A stretch of DNA of 64,000 bases from Macrostomum lignano (taxonomy: Eukaryota), in contig NIVC01001573.1 of the NCBI GenBank assembly GCA_002269645.1, positions 1 through 64,000 on the forward strand. The letters run 5' to 3'. Positions 1-64,000 of this stretch are shown here, piece by piece. The number at the start of each line of letters is the position of its first letter. The first letter of the stretch is position 1. The position numbers and the translations under genes were made by a program. The notes under the pieces were generated by a model, which saw only the letters and a program-made list of their open reading frames with translations, was not told the origin of the DNA and ran no database searches.

Positions 1-705
1 GATGGGGTTTGGATTGATGATTCTGGGTTTGGGATTGATGATTCTGGGTTTGCGGATTGATGATTCTGGGGTTTGGGATTGATGATTCTGGGGTTTGGGA
101 TTGATGATTCTGGGGTTCGGATTGATGATCTGGGTTTGGGATTGATAAATTTGGGGTTTGGGATTGATGATTCTAGGGGTTTGGGATTGATGATTCTGGG
201 TTTGGATTGATGATTCTGGGGTTTGGGGATTGATGATTTTCGGGTTTGGGATTGATGATTCAGGTGGTTTGGGATTGATGATTCTGGGGTTTCGGATTGA
301 TGATTCTGGGGTTTGGATTGATGATTCTGGGGTTTCGGATTGATGATTCTGGGGTTGGAATTGATGATTCTGGGGTTTCGGATTGATGATTCTGGGTTTC
401 GGATTGATGATTCTGGGGTTTCGGATTGATGATTCTGGGGTTTGGGATTGATGATTCTGGGTTTGGGATAGATGATTTTGGGTTTCAGGATTGATGATTC
501 TGGGGGTTTGGGATTGATGATTTGGGGTTTGGGATTGATGATTCTGGCGGTTTGGAATTGATGATTCTGGGGTTTGGATTGATTGATTCAGTGGTTTGGG
601 ATTGATGATTCTGGGTTTGGGATTGATGATTCAGTGGTTTGGGATTGATGATTCTGGGGTTTAGGATGGATGATTTTGGGATTTTGAATTGATGAATTTG
701 GGATT
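1..705. repeat. About 22-bp minisatellite (GGATTGATGATTCTGGGGTTT), ADAM intron
   Basis: Tandem copies read directly. Confidence 0.95.
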
Positions 706-736: not shown

Positions 737-3700
737 TCGTGACTGCAGCCGGTGTAGTTGTACGCGAGCGGGCTGATCCCCGGTCATGCTGTAGTCGCAG
801 TAGCCCAGCTGCGATGCCTGAGTGGTGGCCTCGGAATAAAAGGCCGGGGCGGCCCGAAAATCCGAGGCGTTGAACATCATGGAGCAGCGGGTGTTGCGGT
901 CCGAGCACCGGCCGTTGAAGCAGTAGGCCTTGAGGGTCAGTGGTCAACTGCGGTTCTTGAGTCAAAGGCCCATGATTCAGAGGGTCACAGATTTGTTTAC
1001 TGATTAACCATAGGGTTAAGGAATGATTGAGTCAATGGGTCATTGGATCAACAGTGAGTCAATGGGTCAATGGGTCCAATGGGTCATTGGGTCATTGGGT
1101 CATGTGGGTCAATGGGTCATTGGTCAATGGGTCAGTGGGTCATTGAGTCATTTGGTCATTGGTCCCAATATCTCCTCACCTGTCCGTTGAGGCACTCTGA
1201 TCCGTCAATCATGAAGTCATCAAATTCCGGGCACCATTCGCTGGTCCCGTTACAGTACTCCTCAAGGTCGCAGGCTCGCTTCCTTGGCCGACATACGACG
1301 CCCTGCGACTTCAGGCTGCAGGTGGTGAGGTTGCAGCACTGGCCTGAGGCGCAGGCGGCCCCGCTGGCCAATTTGCAGGTGCTGGGGTTGCAACAGGTGT
1401 TGTTGCACCACTGCGGAGCGTGAGATGAGCTATGAAATTTCATCATACACATACCCCATTCCATTATCCGATATCCCATTCGTATAATATCCCTATCCTA
1501 CGATATCCCATTCCTATAATATCCCTATCCTACAATATCTCTATCCTACAATATCCCTATCCTACAATATCCCTAACTACTAAGCAACGGCAGATGGCGC
1601 GATTTTGGAGGTGAGGTGGGTGTCAACCCTCCTCGCCTCTCATTGGCTGGCGCCCCGATCACTAGGTGATCGATACCCGTATCGATATCGGCGCTCGGCG
1701 CGCGCGCGCCGCAGGCGCGTGGCGCCAAGCGCCGTCCAGCCGCAGGCGACCCTCCCAGCCACCGGCGACCCTCCCCAGCCGCAGGCGCACCTACCGATAT
1801 GTATGCCCACCCTACCGATATGTACCCGATATGTACACCCTCCCGAGCCGCAGGCGCACCCTCCCGAGCCGTAGGCGCCCATGCCGCAGACGCCCATGCC
1901 GCAGACGCCCATGCCGCAGACGCCCATGCCGCAGGCACCCCGAGTGTACACTCTACCGAGCCGCAGGCACCCCGAGTGTACACTCTACCGAGCCGCAGGC
2001 ACCCGAGTGTACACTCTACCGATATGTACACTCTACCACTCTCCCGATATGTAGTCAACGATATTAGGCTAGTGAAAACTACTTATAGTAGGTGAAATTG
2101 AGTATATTTACATAAAAATGTAGATAAAACATATTGGTAGGTGAATAATGACGCATATTGCATATTAAAATGTACATATTGGAGCATATGAGCAGCAAAA
2201 ACACACAATGTAGGTGTATGGGCAGAAATAGACAAAGCAGGTACTGTAGGCGCTACATAGGTGGAAATACACACAGCAGGTTTACAAAGTGTACTTTCGA
2301 TACATATCGGATTAATGTATAAAGCAGGTTTACAAGGCATGCATAAGGTGTAGTTGTATAATACAGGCACGCATGTATAATCAGATTATAGGCAAACGCC
2401 CAGGTGCAACAGACGCGTAAATAATGTCACACCGACTAAAGAGTAAATATTGTCTAACCCGCAGGTGCATAAAAATTTTAAACAAAAGCGGTTCGGGGAA
2501 ATCCCAAAAGGGGGTTCACGGCCTAATGACCCGATATACTTTCAACACAATTAAACCCACAAGTGGGCTAGAAAAATGGACGTATTTCGATTGCGCTATC
2601 AGTACGCTAATCAGCGCAGCAAGTTCATGTCAGGAGTTCTACTCCAAGAGGCGGACCGCTGGGCCACAAACCGCCCCGAGGGAATAGGTGTCAAATGGGA
2701 GTTTTAACACTTGAGGGGATCCCGCTCAATGTACAGTGGAGGTGCCAAATGAGTAAGGACCCCTAAGTACAGTGCGGGCGTAAAACCATTTTCATCCCCA
2801 CGAGTCAAGGGATCCCAAGTGGGCACATAGGGGAATCCCAGGCGTGCAAAGACAGATCCTTATCTTTCACTCACTCCCGAAAGCCATACGGGCGGCTAGC
2901 GGCCCCATACACCCTCTTAGTCATTACGCGCTGGAAAGTCTTGTCCATCTCGAGGGTCCGGATTGTACAGCTAGCCTTATCGCGCCTGAACTGGGCCTGG
3001 GGCAGGCGTACAGAGCCCCGTGGCGCAGAATTTCCTGCAGCTCGTCCTCGCGCTCGGAAATCTCGGGGGTGACTCTGATGCCCTTGCACTTGAGCACCGA
3101 GTACAGCGACCTGTCGGGCTTCTCCACCACGTACCGGTAGAGCTTGGGGCCTCCCGTGGTGAACTGTACCATGCGGCAGCCAGCAGGTACCTCGTCAGTC
3201 CACTGCCCCAAACTCGAACCGCCCGGAGGCTCGTACTCGCCCGGGAGCAGCGGTATACACCCTGGGAGAGGAGGAGAATAAAGTGTTAAGGGGAGAAAGA
3301 GAGACAGAGACAGTGAAAAAATTACTTACGAATCAGTATCGGCGTAAATGACTCGGGTTCCTAGCCCTCCAGAGCCTCGTAGAGTCGCAGCCGGGCGTGG
3401 GAGGTGGTGAAAACGCCAATAGGTACATTAGCGTACTTGAACGCCCGCTCGCCAGCACCGCCAAATCGGGGCTTGTACTCGAGCATCATGAAGCTCTCCC
3501 CAATTGGCTCGCACGACTTGACCTTGATCGAGGGGTCGGTCAGGCGCTGCAGCCACGCCTCGTAGCTGTCCACAATCTCTGTGGAGGTCAGGTCGTCGCG
3601 CTGGCAGAATTTGCCCCAGAGCCTGCAGGGAAAAATAAATTTTTTTTGTAAGTAGAAAAACACGGCCCCACTGCAAGTAGAAAAAACTTACGAGTTTAGA

Positions 3701-6700
3701 AAAATCTTGGCCACAAAGCGCAAGCCAGGATTCTCCTCCACCTTTTCCAGCCGGACGCCTTCGCGCTCGAAAAAGCTGGCCATGTAGGCAGCCTTGGCGT
3801 CCTCAGCCATCCCCGGCGAACCGCTAGACTCGGCTTTGAGCTTCAAAAAAGTGTTTACATAATCTGCAAACAGGCCCGTGCGAGTCTCGGTCCAATAGGC
3901 CAGGGCATGAACTGACTGCAGCTTGTAACCCAACTGCAGGGCCTTGTGGAGCTCTGGGGTCGACCACGTGCCGCGGAGCATTCTCTCAGCGTCAGTGTGT
4001 GTACACTCGCTGCTGCACTGGGTCTCCATGCAGACGCGGCAGAGGCCGAAAACCAACTTCTTGTTAATCTTGGCGGGCAGTAGCGGGATGTGGAGATTGG
4101 TTGGCGGCAGAATCGACACCTCGGCGATGCCAAAATACCGGGCCAGCTGCAGCTCATCCAGTAGATGAGGCTCGGGGTGGTGTACCGGGTGCCCGACCGG
4201 GTACTTGTCAAACTTGTTGACAGTCGGGTAGAGCGACACCTAGGGGATAAGGATAAGATAAACTCAAACGCATGTCAACTGTGTGTGTACAAGTGTACAA
4301 ACTTACCACATCCCGATAGCGCAGCTCTACAGTCTCGGTGGCCTCGGCGTGCGGGACAAAAGCCTCGGTACGGCCGCCAAACAGGGCATCCTCCAGGCGA
4401 ATAGGCTGCTGGACTGGCGCTCCCTCGTCCTGATAGTCGTGCTCCCACAGAACACGCACATTGTATGCAGTGGAGAGCAACCGGGTGAAGCGCTCAGTCT
4501 CCTCATAAATCGCCCGCATTGGCTGGTTCTTGAGCGGGTGCAGCACGTCGCCGTTGGGGAAGCACTTGGGACAGCCATGGAAGAAGCAGCCATGAAACTG
4601 CAGCACTGTCCTGGTCTCTGGGTCGAAGCCGTCGACCTTACGGCCCATGGCGAAAGCCTCGCCGCCCGAGTCCGCTGTCCGCAACCGGCCGCCAAACTCG
4701 GTTGCATTCAAATGTGCCAGCCAGCACCGCGCCTTGTGCGACTGTACATCGGACCGGCGGGAAATCACCCCAAGAGTGTTGGGCTCCATAAACTTGGTGG
4801 TGAATACCGACATGGCCAAGCCCGCAATGGTGTTGGATTGAACAAATGCGTCCAGTCCGCAAATGTCCTTAATCAGGCGGGCATATTTCAGGCAGCCTTC
4901 CCGCAAAATTAACGTGTCCTGCAGGCAATAGTCCAGGTACTCCTTATTAAAATTAAACACCTGTCCCTCCTGCTTGGCCAGCCAGTCGGCGATGGAGTCA
5001 TGCTGCTTATTTTCTTTCCTCCATACATATCAATTGAGCAGTAGGGACCGACGTACCCCCAATTTTGAGGCTGGTTAAACACGTGCGGGAAATCTCCTTT
5101 GGTCAGTTGGGTGCCCAAACCAAGCGCCTTTGGGAATTGCGCCAGACCAATAGGGATGAAATTGAGGCTGTCCTTGAAGGTGATCTTGTCGCACTTCATA
5201 TACATTAGGCGGCTGTTCTGGAAGATCACTTGCGGCTTCTTCTTGGCCAGTCCGTTGAGTAGGGCGCCGAGCAGGAGGAATGCGTCATACGCAGAGCCAT
5301 TGTGCGCAATAGCAATTGCCCCCTGCTTGAACACACTAGTCAGCCAGCAGTAAAATGCATCGATAGAGTGCGGCCCGACAGATACAAACTCTCGCATCCC
5401 ACAGGCACAGTCATTGTGCGAGACACAGCTCGTGAAATCCAGTGCCAAATCGCGTCCCGCAATGCAATTGGCTGAGCTGTGTAGTCCCCCGCACACGCTG
5501 CAGCGGGGCCTGGGGAAGAGTTTGGGACACGCCTCGCAGGAGGTGGCAGCCGTAACCAAGTGTACCCGGTGCTGCTTGCCAGAGTCCACGTACGTCTCGA
5601 AATCATAGTAAACATACGGGGCGCTAGACTCTTTGGCTTTGGGCGGGGTGACAAAGCACTCGTGGGTGGCAGTTTCGTCGTACTGCTTGCAGACTGGGCA
5701 CTTGGCATAACCACACTGATGCTCAGGGGGCTGGCCTACTTTTAGTTCTTCTAGATAGCCACACGTGCCGCAAACGTGGACCGAATCACAGCGCGATCTG
5801 CCGCCTTATTCTTGCGCTTGTGATTTTCTAGGCACTGAGCATTATAGCAATTTAGCCCGCAATCATGGCATCTTACATATGCGCGGTTTGCCTTACAGTT
5901 GGAGCCCGGAGTCTTGCATGTACTGCAGGCATCAGCGCACTTGTGCTCGGCGTTGGCGCAGTCGTAGGCCATCTCGCACTTGGGCAGTAGTGATCAGAGC
6001 CGAAAAACGCAGGCAGCTTGGTGACCACATTAAAGTGCTGCTCGACCAGGTGCAGGTGCAGAATCTCGGTGCCAGGCAGGTTGAAGATGCACCTGTTGGC
6101 CTCCTCTGCCGTACACGCGTACACCAAAATCGCGCCCGGATGCAGCCGGTTCAGGGCACGGATCGCTTCGGGCAGTGCATCCAACCCGAAAGGACCAGCC
6201 TGCGAGACGGTTTGAAGAGTCTGTGTGGAGGGTAAAATATTTCTTTTAGTATTCCCTGATACTGTGTAAAAAATCTTATCAGAAAATATATCTTTTAGTA
6301 TTCCACGATACTGTGTAAAAATTATTATCAGAAAATTTTAGTATTCCACGACTGTGTAAAAATTCTTATCAGAAAAATACTAGAAACTTACCGTGTAGAG
6401 GCCAGCTTCGATTTGTAGCTCAGCCACCAGCTTAGTCTGCGTGGGCGAATTGGCCTTGATTGTGTGCCACACCCGCTTGGTGATGGACTTGGCCACGAAT
6501 TGCAGGTAGGCGCAGGCCACGACCAGAGCGCGCAGCAGGCATCTCTTGTCCGAGTTGGTGATGCGGACATAGTGCTTGGAGAAGGCGTGCCGCTCTTCTA
6601 GATGCTTGTTCTCGAGAGCACATCCACCTCGAGGTACCCAGGCTTTTAGCAGACGGATAGAAAAGTTGCTCGACAGTACGCTTGCGTCTGACTGCACAAT

Positions 6701-9700
6701 CTTGTCAATGTGCTTAAACAACAATTCAGCCGTCATGCGGGCTGCACGCACCGGGGGAGTGTGGGCCGCTTTGAGCATATTGTCGCTCTCGAATTTCGCG
6801 GCCATAAAGTCATCACCAGCCAAATCTTGCTTGAAAACTTCGAGCATGTCAGCAAACACCTCCCGCAAATCTTCGGTGTTGGTAATATGCACCACATACT
6901 CGACACCCTTTGCCCTAAACTTGGGCAGGTCACGCTGATTATCCAGCCGGCCGTAAAACCTGCATGGGGGAATGGGGGAGTGTGAGTCAGCTAGGGTCTG
7001 TGTGGGAAATGGGGGGCGGATAACTCACCCGGTCCGGTAACAGATTCCGGCTGTGTTGGCGGGACAAACGCGTCTGAAAAAACACAAGGAGATAAAAAAC
7101 CAGAAGAATCTGTCATTTTCCTGGCCCCAGCGTGTTTCCCCGCCCTAGCCCCAGTAATTTCTTAACAGAGTTTACTCTGCTGTCCCCGCAGCAACTCTCT
7201 GCAATTTCTTATCTGCACCCCCGCTGCAGCCTGTCGCAGCAGTCTTTGTTTACTCACCCCTGCAACTCTCTGTCGCAGCAATTTGCACCTAGCTGCAGCC
7301 TGTCTGGGTAGCGCCCTATCTGCAGCCCCAGTCTGTCCCAGCAACTCTCTGCCCCACCTGGCTGTAACTTGTCTAGCCTGCCCCAACGATTCTGCAGCAA
7401 TTTCTTATCTGCCGCAGCACCCTAGCAACTGTCTGTTTTTGCAGCAATTTCTTATCAGCACACCCCTCCCTGTCTAGACAACCCCCCCACCCCAGTCTTT
7501 GTTTACTCACCCCTGCAACTCTCTGTCGCAGCAATTTGCACCCCAGCTGCAGCCTGTCTGGACAACACCCCCCTAGCAGCAATTTCTTATCAGCACACAC
7601 CCGGCTGAAACTTGTCTAGCCCTCCCCTGCAACTCTCTGTTACAGACCCTGCCGCAGCACCCCACCCTAGCAACTCCAGTCTAGACCCCTGCAGCTGTCG
7701 CAGCAGTCTTTGTTGTTTACTCTGCGGTCCCACAGACCCTGCAGCTGCTGCTGCTGCTCAGCCCCTACCCCCACCCTAGCAACTACAGTCTAGACAGAAA
7801 TTAATTAAAACTTACCATAAAGACGTTGCCTCTTGTCAGCCAGAAAGCAGTTGCTGCGGCGCTGCGTTTAGCCATTTTGCAAACAGAGAGCGTGAGAGAG
7901 CGGAGAGAGAAGGATTTATCTCTCTACCCTGGCTCTGGGGGTCTGTATATATACTAAAAAATCTGCTCAGCTCGCCTGTTATTGGATAAATCGCCAAAAA
8001 CCAACCAAAATCATCAAAAATCACCCCAAAATCATCACCCACCCCACCCTCCACCCGGGGTATATAAGGCGCTGCACGGCTGTCAGAGAGCTCTCTGCTG
8101 CTGCTGCTGCTAAATCATGTCTTCTATCTCTCTATACGAAAACTTTGTGGCGCGGAAGCCCACATTTGAAACTGAACACAACTTGATTGAAATTCGGCGT
8201 CTCTACACCAACGAGGCCGGAGTGTGGAAGGACGGCTTCCCTGCAATCTACTTGGCCGAGCCAGAGTGGAAGAAGCTCGAAGCTGCGCGCCCTGACCTGG
8301 AGGCTGCTGCCCGCCTTCACGTGAACAAGCGGGTCCTGTTGGGCAATTTCAAGGCAGTTGAAGCTTCGCGAGGGAGGATCCGTTTGCTGCGCAATTGGCT
8401 CAATCAGGACCCAAAGTTTAATTGGCGCTACACGATCGAATTCACGCCTGAACTGTGGCGCCGGATGTTTGCCGCCCGTTTGGACAAGCTCTTCAAGCCG
8501 GCACCTGAGGCACCCCCTCCAGCCAAGCGAGTCAAGACAGACACGCCTCCGGTAGCCGGGACTGAGGTGGATGTTCTTCAGCTCATGGGTCTCAAACCCT
8601 ACCAATCTCCACCCTGGGAAAATCTGTTTAACGAGGGTTGGGACTGCTAGTTTCCTATTGGTTCGCACCGCCTCACTCGATCCGTCTATATAATTAGTGT
8701 TTCCCCCTCTCCAGAGAGTCAAACCCTATCTCAGCTCTAATACTTTACTCTCTGTTGATTCTAGCATGTCCCGTCGAGCTCTATCCAACCTCTGGGATAA
8801 TAATCGCCCGACTGAAGAGTTAACCAGCCTCGACGGGGATATCCCTGAACACATAGTTCCCCTAGGCACTGAAAACAACGGAAGTGATAATTGGGAGGCT
8901 GATCAATATCTAGCTTGGGCTATGTCCTATGATAGCGACACCGAGTCTGAAGTTTTTGACCTCCCGCTGCTGGCTATCGGCGGGGTTGTGAACGGTGCCC
9001 CTGCTGCTACTGCCTCCGATTTGACTACCGCCTCAGCCGCCCTCTTTGACGTCTCTGTTGAGGAGCTGACCACAACCGGCCCTGCCTCTGCTGCGCCCGT
9101 CTCTGCTGCTGCCGCCTCTACTACGCCCGTCTCTGCTGCTGCTTCAACTACCTCCCACCGGGCCTCAATATCATCAGCCGCTACGCTCCTTCTCTTCGAC
9201 GACGAGGACGAGGATATGTCTGAGGAGATCGCCGTGGTTCGTGAGCGCTTTCCTCGCATTGTGGCCTCATTTTTCCGCGGGGACATTGACTGGCTGAGGT
9301 CTCGGCATCCTGGCGGGCTGCCCTCCCAAGCTACCTTTGTCAGAGCCTTTAATCGGGTTCTTGATACTTTGGTTGCGAGGGGTGCCGGCCTACGGGAGGT
9401 GTTGGAGGCTGAGACTCTGCACCAGGACTGGTTGATGGGGCGCAATTCGTATGCCCCCGACTCTGAGGCGTACCTGGCCGGTCCGGGAGCGCGGCCAACT
9501 GCGTGGGATGAGCCCGTCGCATGGCCCTCCAACTGGGAGGAGCACCTTTCGTTGGTGCGCTATACAGCGTCTCTACGTCTGTGGCGGCTGGAGGACGATT
9601 TAGATTTGGTAAGATATTACATTATATACACAACTCATCTAATCATATACCTTGCATATATTCTATCTACATTGACTGTTATAATTTCCACATTGCCAGT

Positions 9701-12700
9701 CATCCGACTACTGCTTCGAGAGCGTGGAGGAAGAGGCCGCGTACGAGACAGCCCTGAGGGAGCGTATGGAGATTGACTGATAAGGGTATTTCTCTTTGTA
9801 CGCGGTTTGGGGAACCCAACACTGTACACTGGGTAGGTTAGAATGTGCGCTAGCTGGGGGCCTCTATGTGTGTATACACGGGGGTTAAAAGACCAATTCT
9901 GATAGCTCGCTCCTAGGGAGGAAATTGGCAGAGGGGCCGGCCCAAAAAACTGAAATGGGCTGGCCCCGGGCTCGAGTCCACCCACCTAAAATATGGAGGT
10001 CATTACAACCTAATGACCCGAAATACTTTCAACGCAATTGTACCTATAAGAGGGTTAGGGCGGCGGCGGCGGTGGCGAAAACGGGCGGCTAAAACCTCCC
10101 TTTTGGGATTTCCCCGAACCGCTTTTGGTTAAAATTTATGCACCTGCGGGTTAGACAATATTTACTCTTTAGTCGGTGCGACATTATTTACGCGTCTGTT
10201 GCACCTGGGCGTTTGCCTATAATCTGATTATACATGCGTGCCTGTATTATACAACTACACCTTATGCATGCCTTGTAAACCTGCTTTATACATTAATCCG
10301 ATATGTATCGAAAGTACACTTTGTAAACCTGCTGTGTGTATTTCCACCTATGTAGCGCCTACAGTACCTGCTTTGTCTATTTCTGCCCATACACCTACAT
10401 TGTGTGTTTTTGCTGCTCATATGCTCCAATATGTACATTTTAATATGCAATATGCGTCATTATTCACCTACCAATATGTTTTATCTACATTTTTATGTAA
10501 ATATACTCAATTTCACCTACTATAAGTAGTTTTCACTAGCCTAATATCGTTGACTACATATCGGGAGAGTGGTAGAGTGTACATATCGGTAGAGTGTACA
10601 CTCGGGGTGCCTGCGGCTCGGTAGAGTGTACACTCGGGGTGCCTGCGGCTCGGTAGAGTGTACACTCGGGGTGCCTGCGGCATGGGCGTCTGCGGCATGG
10701 GCGTCTGCGGCATGGGCGTCTGCGGCATGGGCGCCTACGGCTCGGGAGGGTGCGCCTGCGGCTCGGGAGGGTGTACATATCGGGGTACATATCGGTAGGG
10801 TGGGCATACATATCGGTAGGTGCGCCTGCGGCTGGGGAGGGTCGCCGGTGGCTGGGGAGGGTCGCCTGCGGCTGGACGGCGCTTGGCGCCACGCGCCTGC
10901 GGCGCGCGCGCGCCGAGCGCCGATATCGATACGGGTATCGATCACCTAGTGATCGGGGCGCCAGCCAATGAGAGGCGAGGAGGGTTGACACCCACCTCAC
11001 CTCCAAAATCGCGCCATCTGCCGTTGCTTAGTAGTTCCCTATCCTACAATATCCCTATCCTACAATATCTTTATCCTACAATATCCCAATCCTACAATAT
11101 CCCTATCCTACAATATCCCTATCCTACAATATCCCTATCCTACAATATCTTTATCCTACAACATCTCTATCCTACAATATCCCTATCCTACAATATCCCT
11201 ATCCTACAGTATCCCTACCCTACAATATCCCTACCTACCCTTTAATATTCCTACCCGACAATATAACATACCTTACCCTACAATATCCTTATACACCCTG
11301 ATTCCCACCCGCTGCACCTGAGGCGGTCCGCAGTCGCAGTCCTCCCCGGGCTCGACAATCCGGTTGCCGCACGCGCTCCTGGTGGCGGCCAGGTTCGCCA
11401 CCGAAGGCGGGTCGGACATGCAGTATCCGAGCCCGTTGTCCACGCTGAAGTCCTGGTAGCGGAACACGGAGCAGTTGGAGAATCGCATCGGGTTAATCCT
11501 GGGATTTGATTGGACAGGCGACACGCGAGTTAAATCTGCGTTCGTGTACTGAATCGTGTGCTGGGTCAAGGGGTGCTGGGTCAAAGGAGTGCTGGGTCAA
11601 GGGGTGCTGGGTCAAGGGGTTCTGGGTCAAAAGAGTGCTGGGTCAAGGGGTGCTGGGTCAAGAGTTGCTGGGTCAAGGGGTGCTGGGTCAAGGAGTGCTG
11701 GGTCAAGGGTCGCTGTGTCAAGGGGTGCTGGGTCAAGGGGTGCTGGGTCAAGGGGTGCTGGGTCAAGGGGTGCTGGGTCAAGGGTCGCTAGGTCAATAAT
11801 CAAAGATAAAAATGTTGGGTCAAGGGGTCGCTGGGTCAATAATCCTAGATAAAGGTGCTGGTTCAATAATCCTAGATGAAGATGCTGGGTCAAGGGGTCG
11901 CTAGGTCAATAATCCTAGATGAAGATGCTGGGTCAAGGGGTCGCTAGGTCAAGGGGTCGCTGGATCAATAATCCTAGATGAAGATGCTGGGTCAAGGGGT
12001 CGCTAGGTCAAGGGGTCGCTGGATCAATAATCCTAGATGAAGATGCTGGGTCAAGGGGCTGCTGGGTCAATAATCCTAGATGAAGATGCTGGGTCAAGGG
12101 GCTGCTGGGTCAATAATCCTAGATGAAGATGCTGGGTCAAGGGGCTGCTGGGTCAATAATCCTAGATGAAGATGCTGGGTCAGGATGTTGAATCGCAGGG
12201 CTACTCATGACTGCGGCTCACTCGGTGCCCACAGCGGCCATGATGCAGCCCTGTCTGTCCGGGCAGTGGCAGCCTCTTTCGTCCTCGTCGTGGTTCATGC
12301 CGAGGTTGTGCCCGAGTTCGTGGGCCACCGTGATGGCCACCCCGATTGCGTTGGCGTCCCGGTCCTGCGAGGAGGGAGTTTGGCCGTTTTGATTTCGGTT
12401 TTCAAAATATTTAACAGTTTCATGAGATATCTATGGGATTTGTCTTATATCTATGAGACTTGCCTATATGCATTGAGACTCGGGAAGCTATGAGATTCGC
12501 CTAAAAACGAGAATGTCTCACCGAATTGACTCCGCCACCGAAAGCGGAGCTGCACAGCTTGCCCAGGTGCGCCAAGCCGACATCCGAGCCGGTCATTTTC
12601 AGTCCGCTGAAGTTTTTTAGCGTTTAAACAAATTTTCTTGATGAAGGCTGGGTGTCATCTTTAGGATACAATTGACAGAATGGGACAGTATTGAGCATTT

Positions 12701-58979: not shown

Positions 58980-61900
58980 CTGGCTACGGCTACGGATATG
59001 GATACGGAAAGGCTATGGATACGGATAGGCTACGGATATGGATACGGATAGGCTACGGATATGGATACGGATAGGCTACGGGTATGGATAGGCTTACGGG
59101 GATATGGATAGGCTACGGATATGGATGTGGATAGGCTACGGATATGGATACGGATAGGCTACGGATATGGATGCGGATAGGCTACAGATATGGATACGAA
59201 TAGGCTACGGATATGGATACGGATAGGCTACAGATATTGATACGGATAGGCTACGGATATGGATAGGCTACGGATACGGATAGGCTACGGATACGGATAG
59301 GCTACGGATATGGATAGGCTACGGATACGGATAGGCTACGGATATGGATGCGGATAGGCTACGGATATGGATACGGATAGGCTACGGATATGGATGCGGA
59401 TAGGCTACAGATATGGATACGGATAGGCTACGGATATGGATACGGATAGGCTACGGATATGGATGCGGATAGGCTACGGATATGGATGCGGATAGGCTAC
59501 GGATATGGATACGGATAGGCTACGGATATGGATGCGGATAGGCTACGGATATGGATACGGATAGGCTACGGATATGGATAGGCTACGGGGATACGGATAG
59601 GCTACGGGTATGGATACGGATAGGCTACGGATATGGATGTGGATAGGCTACGGATATGGATACGGATAGGCTACGGATACGGATAGGCTACGGATATGGA
59701 TGCGGATAGGCTACGGATATGGATGTGGATAGGCTACGGATATGGATACGGATAGGCTACGGATATGGATGCGGATAGGCTACGGATATGGATGTGGATA
59801 GGCTACGGATATGGATACGGATAGGCTACGGATATGGATGCGGATAGGCTACGGATATGGATACGGATAGGCTACGGATATGGATGCGGATAGGCTACGG
59901 ATATGGATGCGGATAGGCTACGGATATGGCTGCGGATAGGCTACAGATATAGATGCGGATAGGCTACGGATATGGATACGGATAGGCTACGGGGATACGG
60001 ATAGGCTACGGGTATGGATAGGCTACGGGGATACGGATAGGCTACGGGTATGGATACGGATAGGCTACGGATATGGATGTGGATAGGCTACGGATATGGA
60101 TGCGGATAGGCTACGGATATGGATACGGATAGGCTACGGATATGGATGTGGATAGGCTACGGATATGGATACGGATAGGCTACGGATACGGATAGGCTAC
60201 GGATATGGATGCGGATAGGCTACGGATATGGATGCGGATAGGCTACGGATATGGATGCGGATAGGCTACGGATATGGATGCGGATAGGCTACGGATATGG
60301 ATGCGGATAGGCTACGGATATGGATACGGATAGGCTACGGATATGGATGCGGATAGGCTACGGATATGGATGCGGATAGGCTACAGATATAGATGCGGAT
60401 AGGCTACGGATATGGATGCGGATAGGCTACGGATATGGATACGGATAGGCTACGGATATGGATACGGATAGGCTACGGATATGGATGCGGATAGGCTACG
60501 GATATGGATGCGGATAGGCTACGGATATGGATACGGATAGGCTACGGATATGGATGCGGATAGGCTACGGATATGGATGCGGATAGGCTACGGATATGGA
60601 TGCGGATAGGCTACAGATATAGATGCGGATAGGCTACGGATATGGATGCGGATAGGCTACGGATATGGATGCGGATAGGCTACAGATATGGATATGGATA
60701 GGCTACGGATATGGATACGGATAGGCTACAGATATGGATGCGGATAGGCTACGGATATGGATGCGGATAGGCTACGGATATGGATGCGGATAGGCTACGG
60801 ATATGGATACGGATAGGCTACGGGGATACGGATAGGCTACGGGTATGGATAGGCTACGGGGATACGGATAGGCTACGGGTATGGATACGGATAGGCTACG
60901 GATATGGATGTGGATAGGCTACGGATATGGATACGGATAGGCTACGGATACGGATAGGCTACGGATATGGATAGGCTACGGGTATGGATACGGATAGGCT
61001 ACGGGTATGGATACGGATAGGCTACGGATATGGATACGGATAGGCTACGGATATGGATAGGCTACGGGGATACGGATAGGCTACGGATATGGATAGGCTA
61101 CGGGGATACGGATAGGCTACGGATATGGATAGGCTACGGGGATACGGATAGGCTACGGGTATGGATAGGCTACGGGGATACGGATAGGCTACGGATATGG
61201 ATACGGATAGGCTACGGATATGGATAGGCTACGGGGATACGGATAGGCTACGGGTATGGATAGGCTACGGGGATACGGATAGGCTACGGATATGGATACG
61301 GATAGGCTACGGGGATACGGATAGGCTACGGGTATGGATAGGCTACGGGGATACGGATAGGCTACGGGTATGGATTTGGATAGGCTACGGGTATGGATAC
61401 GGATAGGCTACAGATATGGATTTGGATAGGCTACGGGTATGGATACGGATAGGCTACAGATATGGATGCGGATAGGCTACAGATATGGATACGGATAGGC
61501 TACGGATATGGATAGGCTACGGGGATACGGATAGGCTACGGGTATGGATACGGATAGGCTACAGATATGGATTTGGATAGGCAACGGGTATGGATACGGA
61601 TAGGCTACAGATATGGATACGGATAGGCTACAGATATGGATGCGGATAGGCTACAGATATGGATACGGATAGGCTACAGATATGGATGCGGATAGGCTAC
61701 AGATATGGATGCGGATAGGCTACGGATATGGATGCGGATAGGCTACAGATATGGATGCGGATAGGCTACGGATATGGATGCGGATAGGCTACGGATATGG
61801 ATGCGGATAGGCTACAGATATGGATGCGGATAGGCTACAGATATGGATGCGGATAGGCTACGGATATGGATGCGGATAGGCTACAGATATGGATGCGGAT

Positions 61901-64000
61901 AGGCTACGGATATGGATGCGGATAGGCTACGGATATGGATGCGGATAGGCTACAGATATGGATGCGGATAGGCTACGGATATGGATGCGGATAGGCAACG
62001 GGTATGGATGCGGATAGGCTACAGATATGGATGCGGATAGGCTACAGATATGGATACGGATAGGCAACGGGTATGGATACGGATAGGCTACAGATATGGA
62101 TACGGATAGGCTACAGATATGGATACGGATAGGCTACGGATATGGATGCGGATAGGCTACAGATATGGATGCGGATAGGCTACAGATATGGATGCGGATA
62201 GGCTACGGATATGGATGCGGATAGGCTACAGATATGGATGCGGATAGGCTACGGATATGGATACGGATAGGCTACGGATATGGATGCGGATAGGCTACGG
62301 ATATGGATACGGATAGGCTACGGATATGGATGCGGATAGGCTACAGATATGGATGCGGATAGGCTACAGATATGGATGCGGATAGGCTACAGATATGGAT
62401 GCGGATAGGCTACGGATATGGATGCGGATAGGCTACGGATATGGATGCGGATAGGCTACGGATATGGATGCGGATAGGCTACGGATATGGATGCGGATAG
62501 GCTACGGATATGGATGCGGATAGGCTACGGATATGGATACGGATAGGCTACGGGGATACGGATAGGCTACGGGTATGGATAGGCTACGGGGATACGGATA
62601 GGCTACGGGTATGGATACGGATAGGCTACGGATATGGATGTGGATAGGCTACGGATATGGATACGGATAGGCTACGGATACGGATAGGCTACGGATATGG
62701 ATACGGATAGGCTACAGATATGGATACGGATAGGCTACAGATATGGATACGGATAGGCTACGGATATGGATGCGGATAGGCTACAGATATGGATGCGGAT
62801 AGGCTACAGATATGGATGCGGATAGGCTACGGATATGGATGCGGATAGGCTACAGATATGGATGCGGATAGGCTACGGATATGGATGCGGATAGGCTACG
62901 GATATGGATGCGGATAGGCTACGGATATGGATACGGATAGGCTACAGATATGGATGCGGATAGGCTACGGATATGGATGCGGATAGGCTACGGATATGGA
63001 TGCGGATAGGCTACGGATATGGATGCGGATAGGCTACGGATATGGATACGGATAGGCTACGGATATGGATGCGGATAGGCTACGGATATGGATACGGATA
63101 GGCTACGGGGATACGGATAGGCTACAGGTATGGATAGGCTACGGGGATACGGATAGGCTACGGGTATGGATACGGATAGGCTACGGATATGGATGTGGAT
63201 AGGCTACGGATATGGATACGGATAGGCTACGGATACGGATAGGCTACGGATATGGATAGGCTACGGGGATACGGATAGGCTACAGATATGGATGCGGATA
63301 GGCTACAGATATGGATGCGGATAGGCTACAGATATGGATGCGGATAGGCTACGGATATGGATGCGGATAGGCTACGGATATGGATGCGGATAGGCTACGG
63401 ATATGGATGCGGATAGGCTACGGATATGGATACGGATAGGCTACGGATATGGATGCGGATAGGCTACGGATATGGATACGGATAGGCTACGGGGATACGG
63501 ATAGGCTACGGGTATGGATAGGCTACGGGGATACGGATAGGCTACGGTATGGATACGGATAGGCTACGGATATGGATGTGGATAGGCTACGGATATGGAT
63601 ACGGATAGGCTACGGATACGGATAGGCTACGGATATGGATAGGCTACGGGGATACGGATAGGCTACAGATATGGATTTAGATAGGCTACGGGTATGGATA
63701 CGGATAGGCTACAGATATGGATGCGGATAGGCTACAGATATGGATACGGATAGGCTACGGATATGGATAGGCTACGGGGATACGGATAGGCTACGGGTAT
63801 GGATACGGATAGGCTACGGGTATGGATACGGATAGGCTACAGATATGGATGCGGATAGGCTACAGATATGGATGCGGATAGGCTACAGATATGGATGCGG
63901 ATAGGCTACGGATATGGATGCGGATAGGCTACAGATATGGATTTGGATAGGCAACGGGTATGGATACGGATAGGCTACAGATATGGATGCGGATAGGCTA
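58980..64000. repeat. 23-bp satellite (GGCTACGGATATGGATGCGGATA), over 5 kb, runs off the window
   Basis: Built of GGCTAC/GGATAT/GGATGC/GGATA sub-repeats. Confidence 0.97.

Follow-up and report, generated by a model that had tools for sequence, protein, structure and literature searches.

Polymerase gene and its introns

The window analyzed here, a stretch of 64,000 nucleotides (nt) of Macrostomum lignano DNA (contig NIVC01001573.1, assembly GCA_002269645.1), carries a Polinton-derived element, and the subject of this analysis is the DNA polymerase gene (family B, protein-primed) of that element, which is interrupted by six introns, three of them (designated A, B and C) within catalytic motifs A, B and C. 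The gene and its introns are as follows:

2871..7875, minus strand: gene for a DNA polymerase of family B, protein-primed
7815-7074, minus strand: intron 1, 742 nt, behind a short first exon
~7028-6960, minus strand: intron 2, 69 nt, N-terminal region
6391-6221, minus strand: intron 3, 171 nt, in the non-conserved N-terminal region, phase 0
4306-4240, minus strand: intron A, 67 nt, phase 0, motif A (YRDV/VSLYP, i.e., D-V then V-S-L-Y-P)
3691-3623, minus strand: intron B, 69 nt, splits the motif-B Ser codon in phase 2 (KIFLN-S-LWGKF)
3329-3262, minus strand: intron C, 68 nt, splits the motif-C Ser codon in phase 2 (YADTD-S)

Three GT-AG introns of 67, 69 and 68 nt in motifs A, B and C had been proposed in a preliminary description of this DNA, and they were confirmed at these coordinates. 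PF03175 matched three of the exon frames (two above cut-off) and motifs A, B and C are all present, as in Polinton/Maverick polymerases. Introns A, B and C all have a GTAAGT donor and a YAG acceptor, and their GC content is 35-41%, as compared to ~57% in the flanking coding windows; with GT...AG ends, a GTRAGT donor, a pyrimidine tract and exact removal from presumed RNA (see below), they have the features of U2-type introns. The three introns share no sequence with one another, and they contain no open reading frame (ORF) and no Rfam match at E 0.5. Apparent "introns" of 120-172 nt in the exonuclease domain and near the putative nuclease insert of the polymerase were rejected as aligner artefacts on in-frame insertions; one contig spans 4305-5930 without a break.

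Splicing of the introns

Splicing was assessed in assembled Logan contigs from four runs of four studies; none of these runs is recorded as RNA, and their RNA nature is our guess. The expected spliced junctions were observed at all three motifs, i.e., a 69-nt skip (intron B) in all four runs, a 67-nt skip (intron A) in three of the four, and intron C bridged by single contigs in runs X1 and X9 (the place of intron C was excluded as a repeat from one depth table, and the bridging contigs are listed in another). Skips were likewise found for the three 5' introns (6391-6221, ~7028-6960 and 7815-7074, the last through a loose contig end in run X5), and all six polymerase introns are thus skipped in probable-RNA contigs. 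The dominant contigs of the four runs are fully spliced, and binned depth in X1 and X9 fits no cover within the introns; one contig of run X7 enters a variant of intron A, which may represent a retained intron, pre-mRNA or DNA. Under the explanation that we prefer (see below), constitutive removal by the host spliceosome is the likeliest fate of these introns.

The preliminary description had raised the possibility that the motif introns act as a splicing-dependent on/off switch for replication, in analogy to germline splicing of the P element. In such a switch, regulated splicing would turn the polymerase on in the germline or in stem cells and off in the soma, in the manner of the P element, whose third intron is spliced specifically in the germline. 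The description had also pointed out that retention of introns B and C would lead to an immediate stop, which is true and, together with the X7 contig, agrees with such a switch; intron A, on the other hand, can be read for 32 codons, and the stop in B and C follows from phase and donor consensus alone, being automatic whenever the donor of a phase-2 intron is GTAAG or GTGAG. Moreover, a switch would not need to be located in a motif, and both the dominant contigs and the depth in X1 and X9 speak against it. While assembled contigs cannot reveal tissue differences in splicing, we regard the switch as improbable.

Copies of the element and a sister family

At least 40 copies of the window family, 90-100% identical over the motif region, were found in the genome. 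Introns A, B and C were all kept in each of the 20 copies examined (20 of 40 scored matches), with a GTGAG donor for intron C in eight of them, and an exact junction probe for the intron-free motif B of this family gave no match in the genome. The polymerase gene of the window copy is frameshifted at ~6110-6135, 5980, 5800, 5010, 3363, just past intron C and at 3015. These sites are open in most copies or contigs, and exon 7 is open in 18 of the 20 copies; the breaks therefore represent damage or assembly error of the window copy.

A sister family of ~10 kb shows the same three motif-intron positions and phases as well as the third 5' intron (at the position of 6221-6391). The two families share ~65% amino acid identity, with saturated synonymous sites, and their introns have little or no sequence similarity. 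The exons are kept under purifying selection (nonsynonymous to synonymous rate ratio, dN/dS, of 0.075 and 0.09 for the A-B exon within the two families), and motif C followed by a donor was found at 87 places for both families together. A quick tree places both families in a single clade (100%) with a stem of 1.28. As the same positions and phases occur in a sister family with saturated synonymous sites, and both families form a single clade on a long stem, the three motif introns represent three old events rather than many.

One sister copy (G000:C1945; L083:9187-9900, L065:1-2025 and L065:6926-9187) carries a reverse transcriptase/RNase H-like retroelement just past the first exon and, within intron C, a further insertion of 2.2 kb, while the exon frames are open. 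Introns may thus buffer insertions.

Placement of the introns in catalytic motifs

The probability that at least three of six introns fall by chance within the 22 codons of motifs A to C, out of ~1270 codons, was 9 × 10-5, and it was 9 × 10-4 when 47 canonical-motif codons were used and 8 × 10-3 with a generous 100 codons, all of these values being post hoc, from a very large scan. The placement of the introns is non-random, in keeping with the preliminary description. Transfer of the introns from host polymerases was considered and rejected, as none of the nine corresponding motifs (A to C in each of the host genes for Pol delta, alpha and zeta) is interrupted. The other polymerase families examined in the genome represent single long ORFs through motifs B and C, and a copy of the same class (L063), which is not sister to the window clade, has no introns; 91 of 974 candidates were scored in the Pfam scan, which could miss further intron-rich families.

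L297 and L299 represent internal deletions. Both are multi-copy Polinton derivatives that retain the integrase and, of the polymerase, only the last ~300 codons. The genome also contains a large Polinton group (L022-L026, L059-L062, L289, L291, L302, L307), several members of which lie beside integrases; in this group motif C reads G-G-D-T-D-S (A-G in L059), motif B reads N-S/A-L-F-G, and the motif A pattern used gave no match.

As archaeal polymerase inteins occupy the same three motifs, the introns had been suggested to lie close to the intein sites of family-B polymerases and possibly to derive from or replace homing elements. For motifs A and B we assume that the intein sites immediately precede the Ser; relative to these, intron A lies 3 nt upstream and intron B 2 nt downstream. 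Intron C lies 8 nt downstream of the D/TDS site given in the available part of PMC549080. The introns are thus near the intein sites rather than at them (offsets of -3, +2 and +8 nt, the first two relative to the assumed sites). An origin from decayed inteins or self-splicing introns would account for the choice of motifs, but it disagrees with these offsets and with the nature of the introns themselves, which are 67-69 nt long and AT-rich and lack shared sequence, ORFs and Rfam matches. In addition, 83 relatives (from the best 80 of 417 metagenome relatives plus viral contigs) have no insertion at the motifs. This origin is very improbable and is largely refuted already.

Interruption of motif B in distant relatives

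Among the best 80 of 417 metagenome relatives and four viral contigs, none of 83 was interrupted at any of the three motifs. This intronless picture is biased, because top-ranked matches favor intact genes, and several proteins of the first profile (among P0014-P0033) are read-throughs of intron B. Protein ends provide a different view, as intron-blind gene callers end at the first in-frame stop. Motif B was located in 264 of 303 non-host relatives, and 32 of these proteins end exactly one residue past the Asn (N-S or N-R), as compared to 2-9 at each of the next five positions. Six of the 32 were seeds of the search itself; in sets not so seeded, 7/116 and 17/102 proteins end there, as compared to 0.16 and 0.32 per other position. 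A further 19 proteins continue N-R into a mostly pyrimidine-rich tail, and P0031 resumes S-F-W-G-K-F in frame. Six proteins break 8 nt further downstream, in the Gly codon of W-G, and P0088 carries an in-frame insert of 19 residues at the motif-B Ser. Two environmental proteins (P0230 and P0084; 59-68% identical to both families) start at V/M-SLYP and end at KIFLNS, and thus correspond to the A-B exon at both ends.

An intron was observed in DNA in contig L266 (one of 14 matches, 46% identical), where a 67-nt GT-AG intron interrupts the same Ser codon in the same phase (AG/T codon) while motif C is intact; this intron was mapped with a profile built from only three proteins. Overall, the motif-B serine codon is a recurrent break across lineages. 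The preliminary description had called for a comparison of intron positions across relatives; in the relatives covered here the break in motif B recurs, while A and C are found at the exact positions only in the window clade. The interrupted codon was of AG type in 43 of 51 interrupted rows as compared to 13 of 80 intact Ser codons, an excess that fits proto-splice sites.

When viral contigs were scanned with patterns for an interruption of motif C (17 matches) or of motif B (60 matches), no polymerase was obtained. The protein P0211 was dropped as an interrupted case, since its motif B runs directly into ATPase-like sequence, probably through a deletion; the probable breakpoint is again the motif-B serine. 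The contigs L255-L267, including L266, are Polinton polymerase contigs inside assemblies labelled bacteria or archaea, and most of them probably represent host contamination of bins.

A different reading of these data is that all cases of intron B go back to one ancient intron of animal Polintons that was passed on, frequently lost and sometimes slid or recoded (AGY/TCN), and that A and C are chance picks from a very large scan. On a FastTree phylogeny of 221 rows (52 unclassifiable rows excluded; rows with the same label and at least 85% identity collapsed), the state of motif B requires at least 20 changes, as compared to 34-41 in the 10 printed of 200 shuffles, i.e., interrupted rows cluster, and most of them have a nearer interrupted than intact neighbor. 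The restriction of A and C to the window clade and the weak result of a generic conservation test (0.04-0.07, see below) also agree with this reading. Conversely, it requires a switch of Ser codon family across the junction and, in elements that lack reverse transcriptase, a large number of exact losses, and it leaves the distinct neighboring sites in motif B unexplained. Moreover, even given B, it would still be unlikely to find both A and C among the five remaining introns (motif fractions of 0.005 each). We consider this reading, a single ancient intron B with A and C by chance, rather unlikely, if far from negligible.

A further reading involves an insert inside the polymerase (window 4409-4756), which gave no match in Pfam and PDB searches and which may resemble a VSR-like nuclease. 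An element-encoded nuclease might cut the uninterrupted motif DNA of competing elements, so that the breaks seed introns and interrupted copies resist. VSR or HNH nuclease domains have been reported for this polymerase class (10.1101/2023.08.22.554363, available part), and a relative (L098) has a weak RAP-domain match at the corresponding insert (E 0.004). Small offsets within the same three motifs as in inteins would be expected of cut sites rather than of shared insertion points; in addition, motif B has a cluster of several neighboring sites, and many Polinton families share the genome. On the other hand, both the activity and the target of the nuclease are hypothetical, the window insert matches no known domain in the above searches, the 83 relatives (best 80 of 417 plus viral contigs) have neither intein nor homing gene at the motifs, and intact relatives vary widely at synonymous sites of the motifs, which a homing nuclease would have to tolerate. 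Such immunity is distinctly unlikely, and the same holds for its wider form, in which the introns would be intein-like across animal lineages, above all at the motif-B serine codon, with the flatworm family protected at all three motifs. If true, introns would be gained at conserved sites by a route that a nuclease drives.

The element and its locus

The element that carries the polymerase gene and its surroundings show the following features:

1576..11035, no strand assigned: element of 9460 bp derived from a Polinton, with the ends ACTACT...AGTAGT
1576..2516: left terminal inverted repeat, ~940 bp, 99.2% identical to the right repeat
10093..11035: right terminal inverted repeat
1570..1575, plus strand: left copy of the 6-bp target-site duplication; the right copy is at 11036-11041
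8117..8650, plus strand: ORF of 177 aa, probably a PC4-like single-strand DNA-binding protein
8769..9780, plus strand: acidic low-complexity ORF with a probable intron donor at 9609
1161..1410, minus strand: exon of a host ADAM (disintegrin) gene, PF00200

With an ADAM metalloprotease exon near 12210-12370, the insertion site of the 9.46-kb element is an intron of the host ADAM gene. The element has the long terminal inverted repeats and, within the 5-8 bp range, the target-site duplication of Polintons/Mavericks; 6-bp duplications also flank further copies (C24, C1945, C1263 and C2757), and paired repeats are spaced ~8.6-10.8 kb apart at many loci of the genome. The PC4-like assignment is a lead from a fairly high feature score and from PF02229 on 21-78% of cluster members; the Pfam search of the 177-aa ORF gave no match. 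A homolog with 44% identity is present in sister-family copies, and beside this gene the sister copy L285/L286 (G000:C1263) has an extra ORF, which presumably resembles a dUTPase. Family searches gave no assignment for the acidic ORF.

A tblastn search with three Polinton integrases gave no match in the window element or in four sister-family regions. Likewise, the ORFs of a full-length Maverick (C2506) revealed no capsid, ATPase or protease gene in the window element, and the ATPase-like ORF of L096 had no match there, although very distant homologs could escape; the 9.46 kb are fully occupied, with no space left for any of these four genes. Because integrase, capsid, ATPase and protease genes were not found, the element is a non-autonomous Polinton derivative and not a full member. 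More than 100 Polinton-type integrase loci are present in the genome, where many Polinton families coexist, and mobilization of the window family in trans is therefore a reasonable assumption. The element is a transcribed, multi-copy Polinton without capsid and integrase, and it seems to borrow an integrase.

Several further observations concern the ends and the surroundings of the element. The ends of the window and sister families (ACTAC...GTAGT) are the reverse of those of the full-length Maverick L079/L080 (G000:C2506; AGTAGT...ACTACT), and both families nonetheless produce 6-bp duplications. A second copy (L084; G000:C1640:158-9618) lies within the same flanking repeat as the window copy, and therefore probably reflects one and the same insertion, at a locus that is duplicated or allelic, and not an independent jump. 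A short-period tandem array occupies window 1-630, and a long tandem array with a 23-bp unit occupies 58985-64000. In the database gene models P0056, P0058, P0064 and P0083, element polymerase exons are fused to host ADAM, zinc-finger or SCP domains; these fusions are probably annotation artefacts of insertions within introns.

Origin of the motif introns

We tentatively prefer, at slightly less than even chances, the explanation that the motif introns are ordinary introns of the host type which, time and again, were gained or survived at DNA that is frozen by the protein. Splicing in the four studies, the positions and phases shared with the sister family, purifying selection on the A-B exon, the hot spot at motif B and the minimum of 20 changes on the tree speak for it. 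Introns A to C would be ordinary major-class spliceosomal introns that arose along the stem of a reduced Polinton lineage (polymerase and single-strand DNA-binding protein), which lives only in chromosomes and may be moved in trans by the integrase of another element. The catalytic motifs would be the places where Polinton polymerase genes repeatedly gain or retain introns, as protein constraint would freeze motif DNA for hundreds of millions of years, including, in motif B, splice-like words such as AAC AG/Y for Asn-Ser and G/GTAAG within Trp-Gly-Lys. In an element copied by its own DNA polymerase, a motif intron could be lost only through exact deletion. The earlier proposal that the introns persist as only precise loss is tolerated stays plausible. 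The data above establish that the introns exist and are spliced, that they are conserved across the two families and placed non-randomly, and that the break in motif B recurs; the survival filter, repeated gain in place of a single old intron, and mobilization in trans are what we infer from them.

A Fisher test on conservation ranks of all six introns, in the style of PMC2814812, gave only 0.04-0.07. Several results weigh against the preferred explanation. Under a pure survival filter, introns would be expected at many conserved codons, but the exonuclease motifs are free of them and the variable N-terminus retains three. The junctions of the window family (TG/G, TC/G and TC/G) are not AG/G, and proto-splice words therefore fail to explain its introns. 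L266 is the sole distant case at the DNA level, as the others rest on protein ends; some "intact" rows may be spliced gene models, and the tree is weak, with 88 of 218 inner branches open. Finally, among the 303 proteins homology ended near motif C in two and began near motif A in three (a count that is blind to motif C behind an interrupted B), so that only motif B appears to be a hot spot among database proteins. In cellular genes, according to the available part of PMC2814812, spliceosomal introns have no preference for conserved sites.

A bias of introns towards active sites would contradict the published contrast, in which inteins and group I introns prefer conserved sites and spliceosomal introns do not (PMC2814812, available part). 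As its ancestors had no introns, each intron in the window polymerase is a datable gain, and repeated hits on one codon in many lineages would offer a rare experiment of nature on the manner and place in which spliceosomal introns arise. Moreover, as both descriptions of Polinton core genes and searches for them take these genes to be intron-free, ORF-based surveys would truncate or miss such lineages; ~6-17% of the sampled database relatives stop at the motif-B serine.

Comparison with known systems

A reduced, spliced Polinton derivative with introns marking its catalytic motifs is unexpected and rather strange, since descriptions of such genes call them intron-free and no preference of ordinary introns for active sites is known. 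The statement of the preliminary description that Maverick genes are typically intronless agrees with the literature for core genes: intact vertebrate Mavericks lack introns according to PMC8097293 (which refers to Kapitonov and Jurka 2006), and nematode Mavericks have intronless core genes and cargo genes with introns (10.1101/2022.07.12.499685). The available parts of PMC8502044, PMC11296320 and PMC12220804 mention no spliced polymerase. We found no description of the window family or of motif-sited introns in Polinton polymerases in the literature within reach, which did not include subscription papers, Repbase and bioRxiv supplements (the latter may list intron-bearing elements).

The nearest database relatives are polymerases of marine-invertebrate Polintons (40-50% identity, several beside an integrase). 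Animal Polintons with pPolB2 and a VSR-nuclease insert, from a marine nematode and a mollusc (10.1101/2023.08.22.554363, available part), share PF03175, terminal repeats within 100-1500 bp and a 6-bp duplication with the window element. They differ in size (13-25 kb as compared to 9.5 kb), in the integrase, ATPase, protease and capsid genes, which were not found in the window element, and, going by the description of intact elements as intronless (PMC8097293, available part), in the six spliced introns of the window polymerase.

Dinoflagellate Maverick/Polinton-like proviruses with introners (10.1101/2025.03.18.643946, the available part of which gives no mapping of intron positions to motifs) likewise contain spliceosomal introns inside Polinton-like elements, but introners form young repeated families, whereas the window introns are old, mutually unrelated and located in catalytic motifs. 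Introners are recognized as many near-identical introns at unrelated sites, and A to C are unrelated to each other; this comparison covers these three introns only, and any such signal would have been lost with age.

In the family-B polymerases of archaea and of Mimivirus, inteins (sites I-III; PMC549080) also interrupt active-site motifs; unlike these, the window introns are removed as RNA by the spliceosome, lack a homing gene and are offset by 2-8 nt. Collaborative homing in phages would be the analog of nuclease-driven immunity, which in the window family would operate with spliceosomal introns. As in the P element, a key enzyme of the window element depends on host splicing, although splicing is germline-specific in the P element, whereas the introns of the window polymerase are probably removed constitutively.

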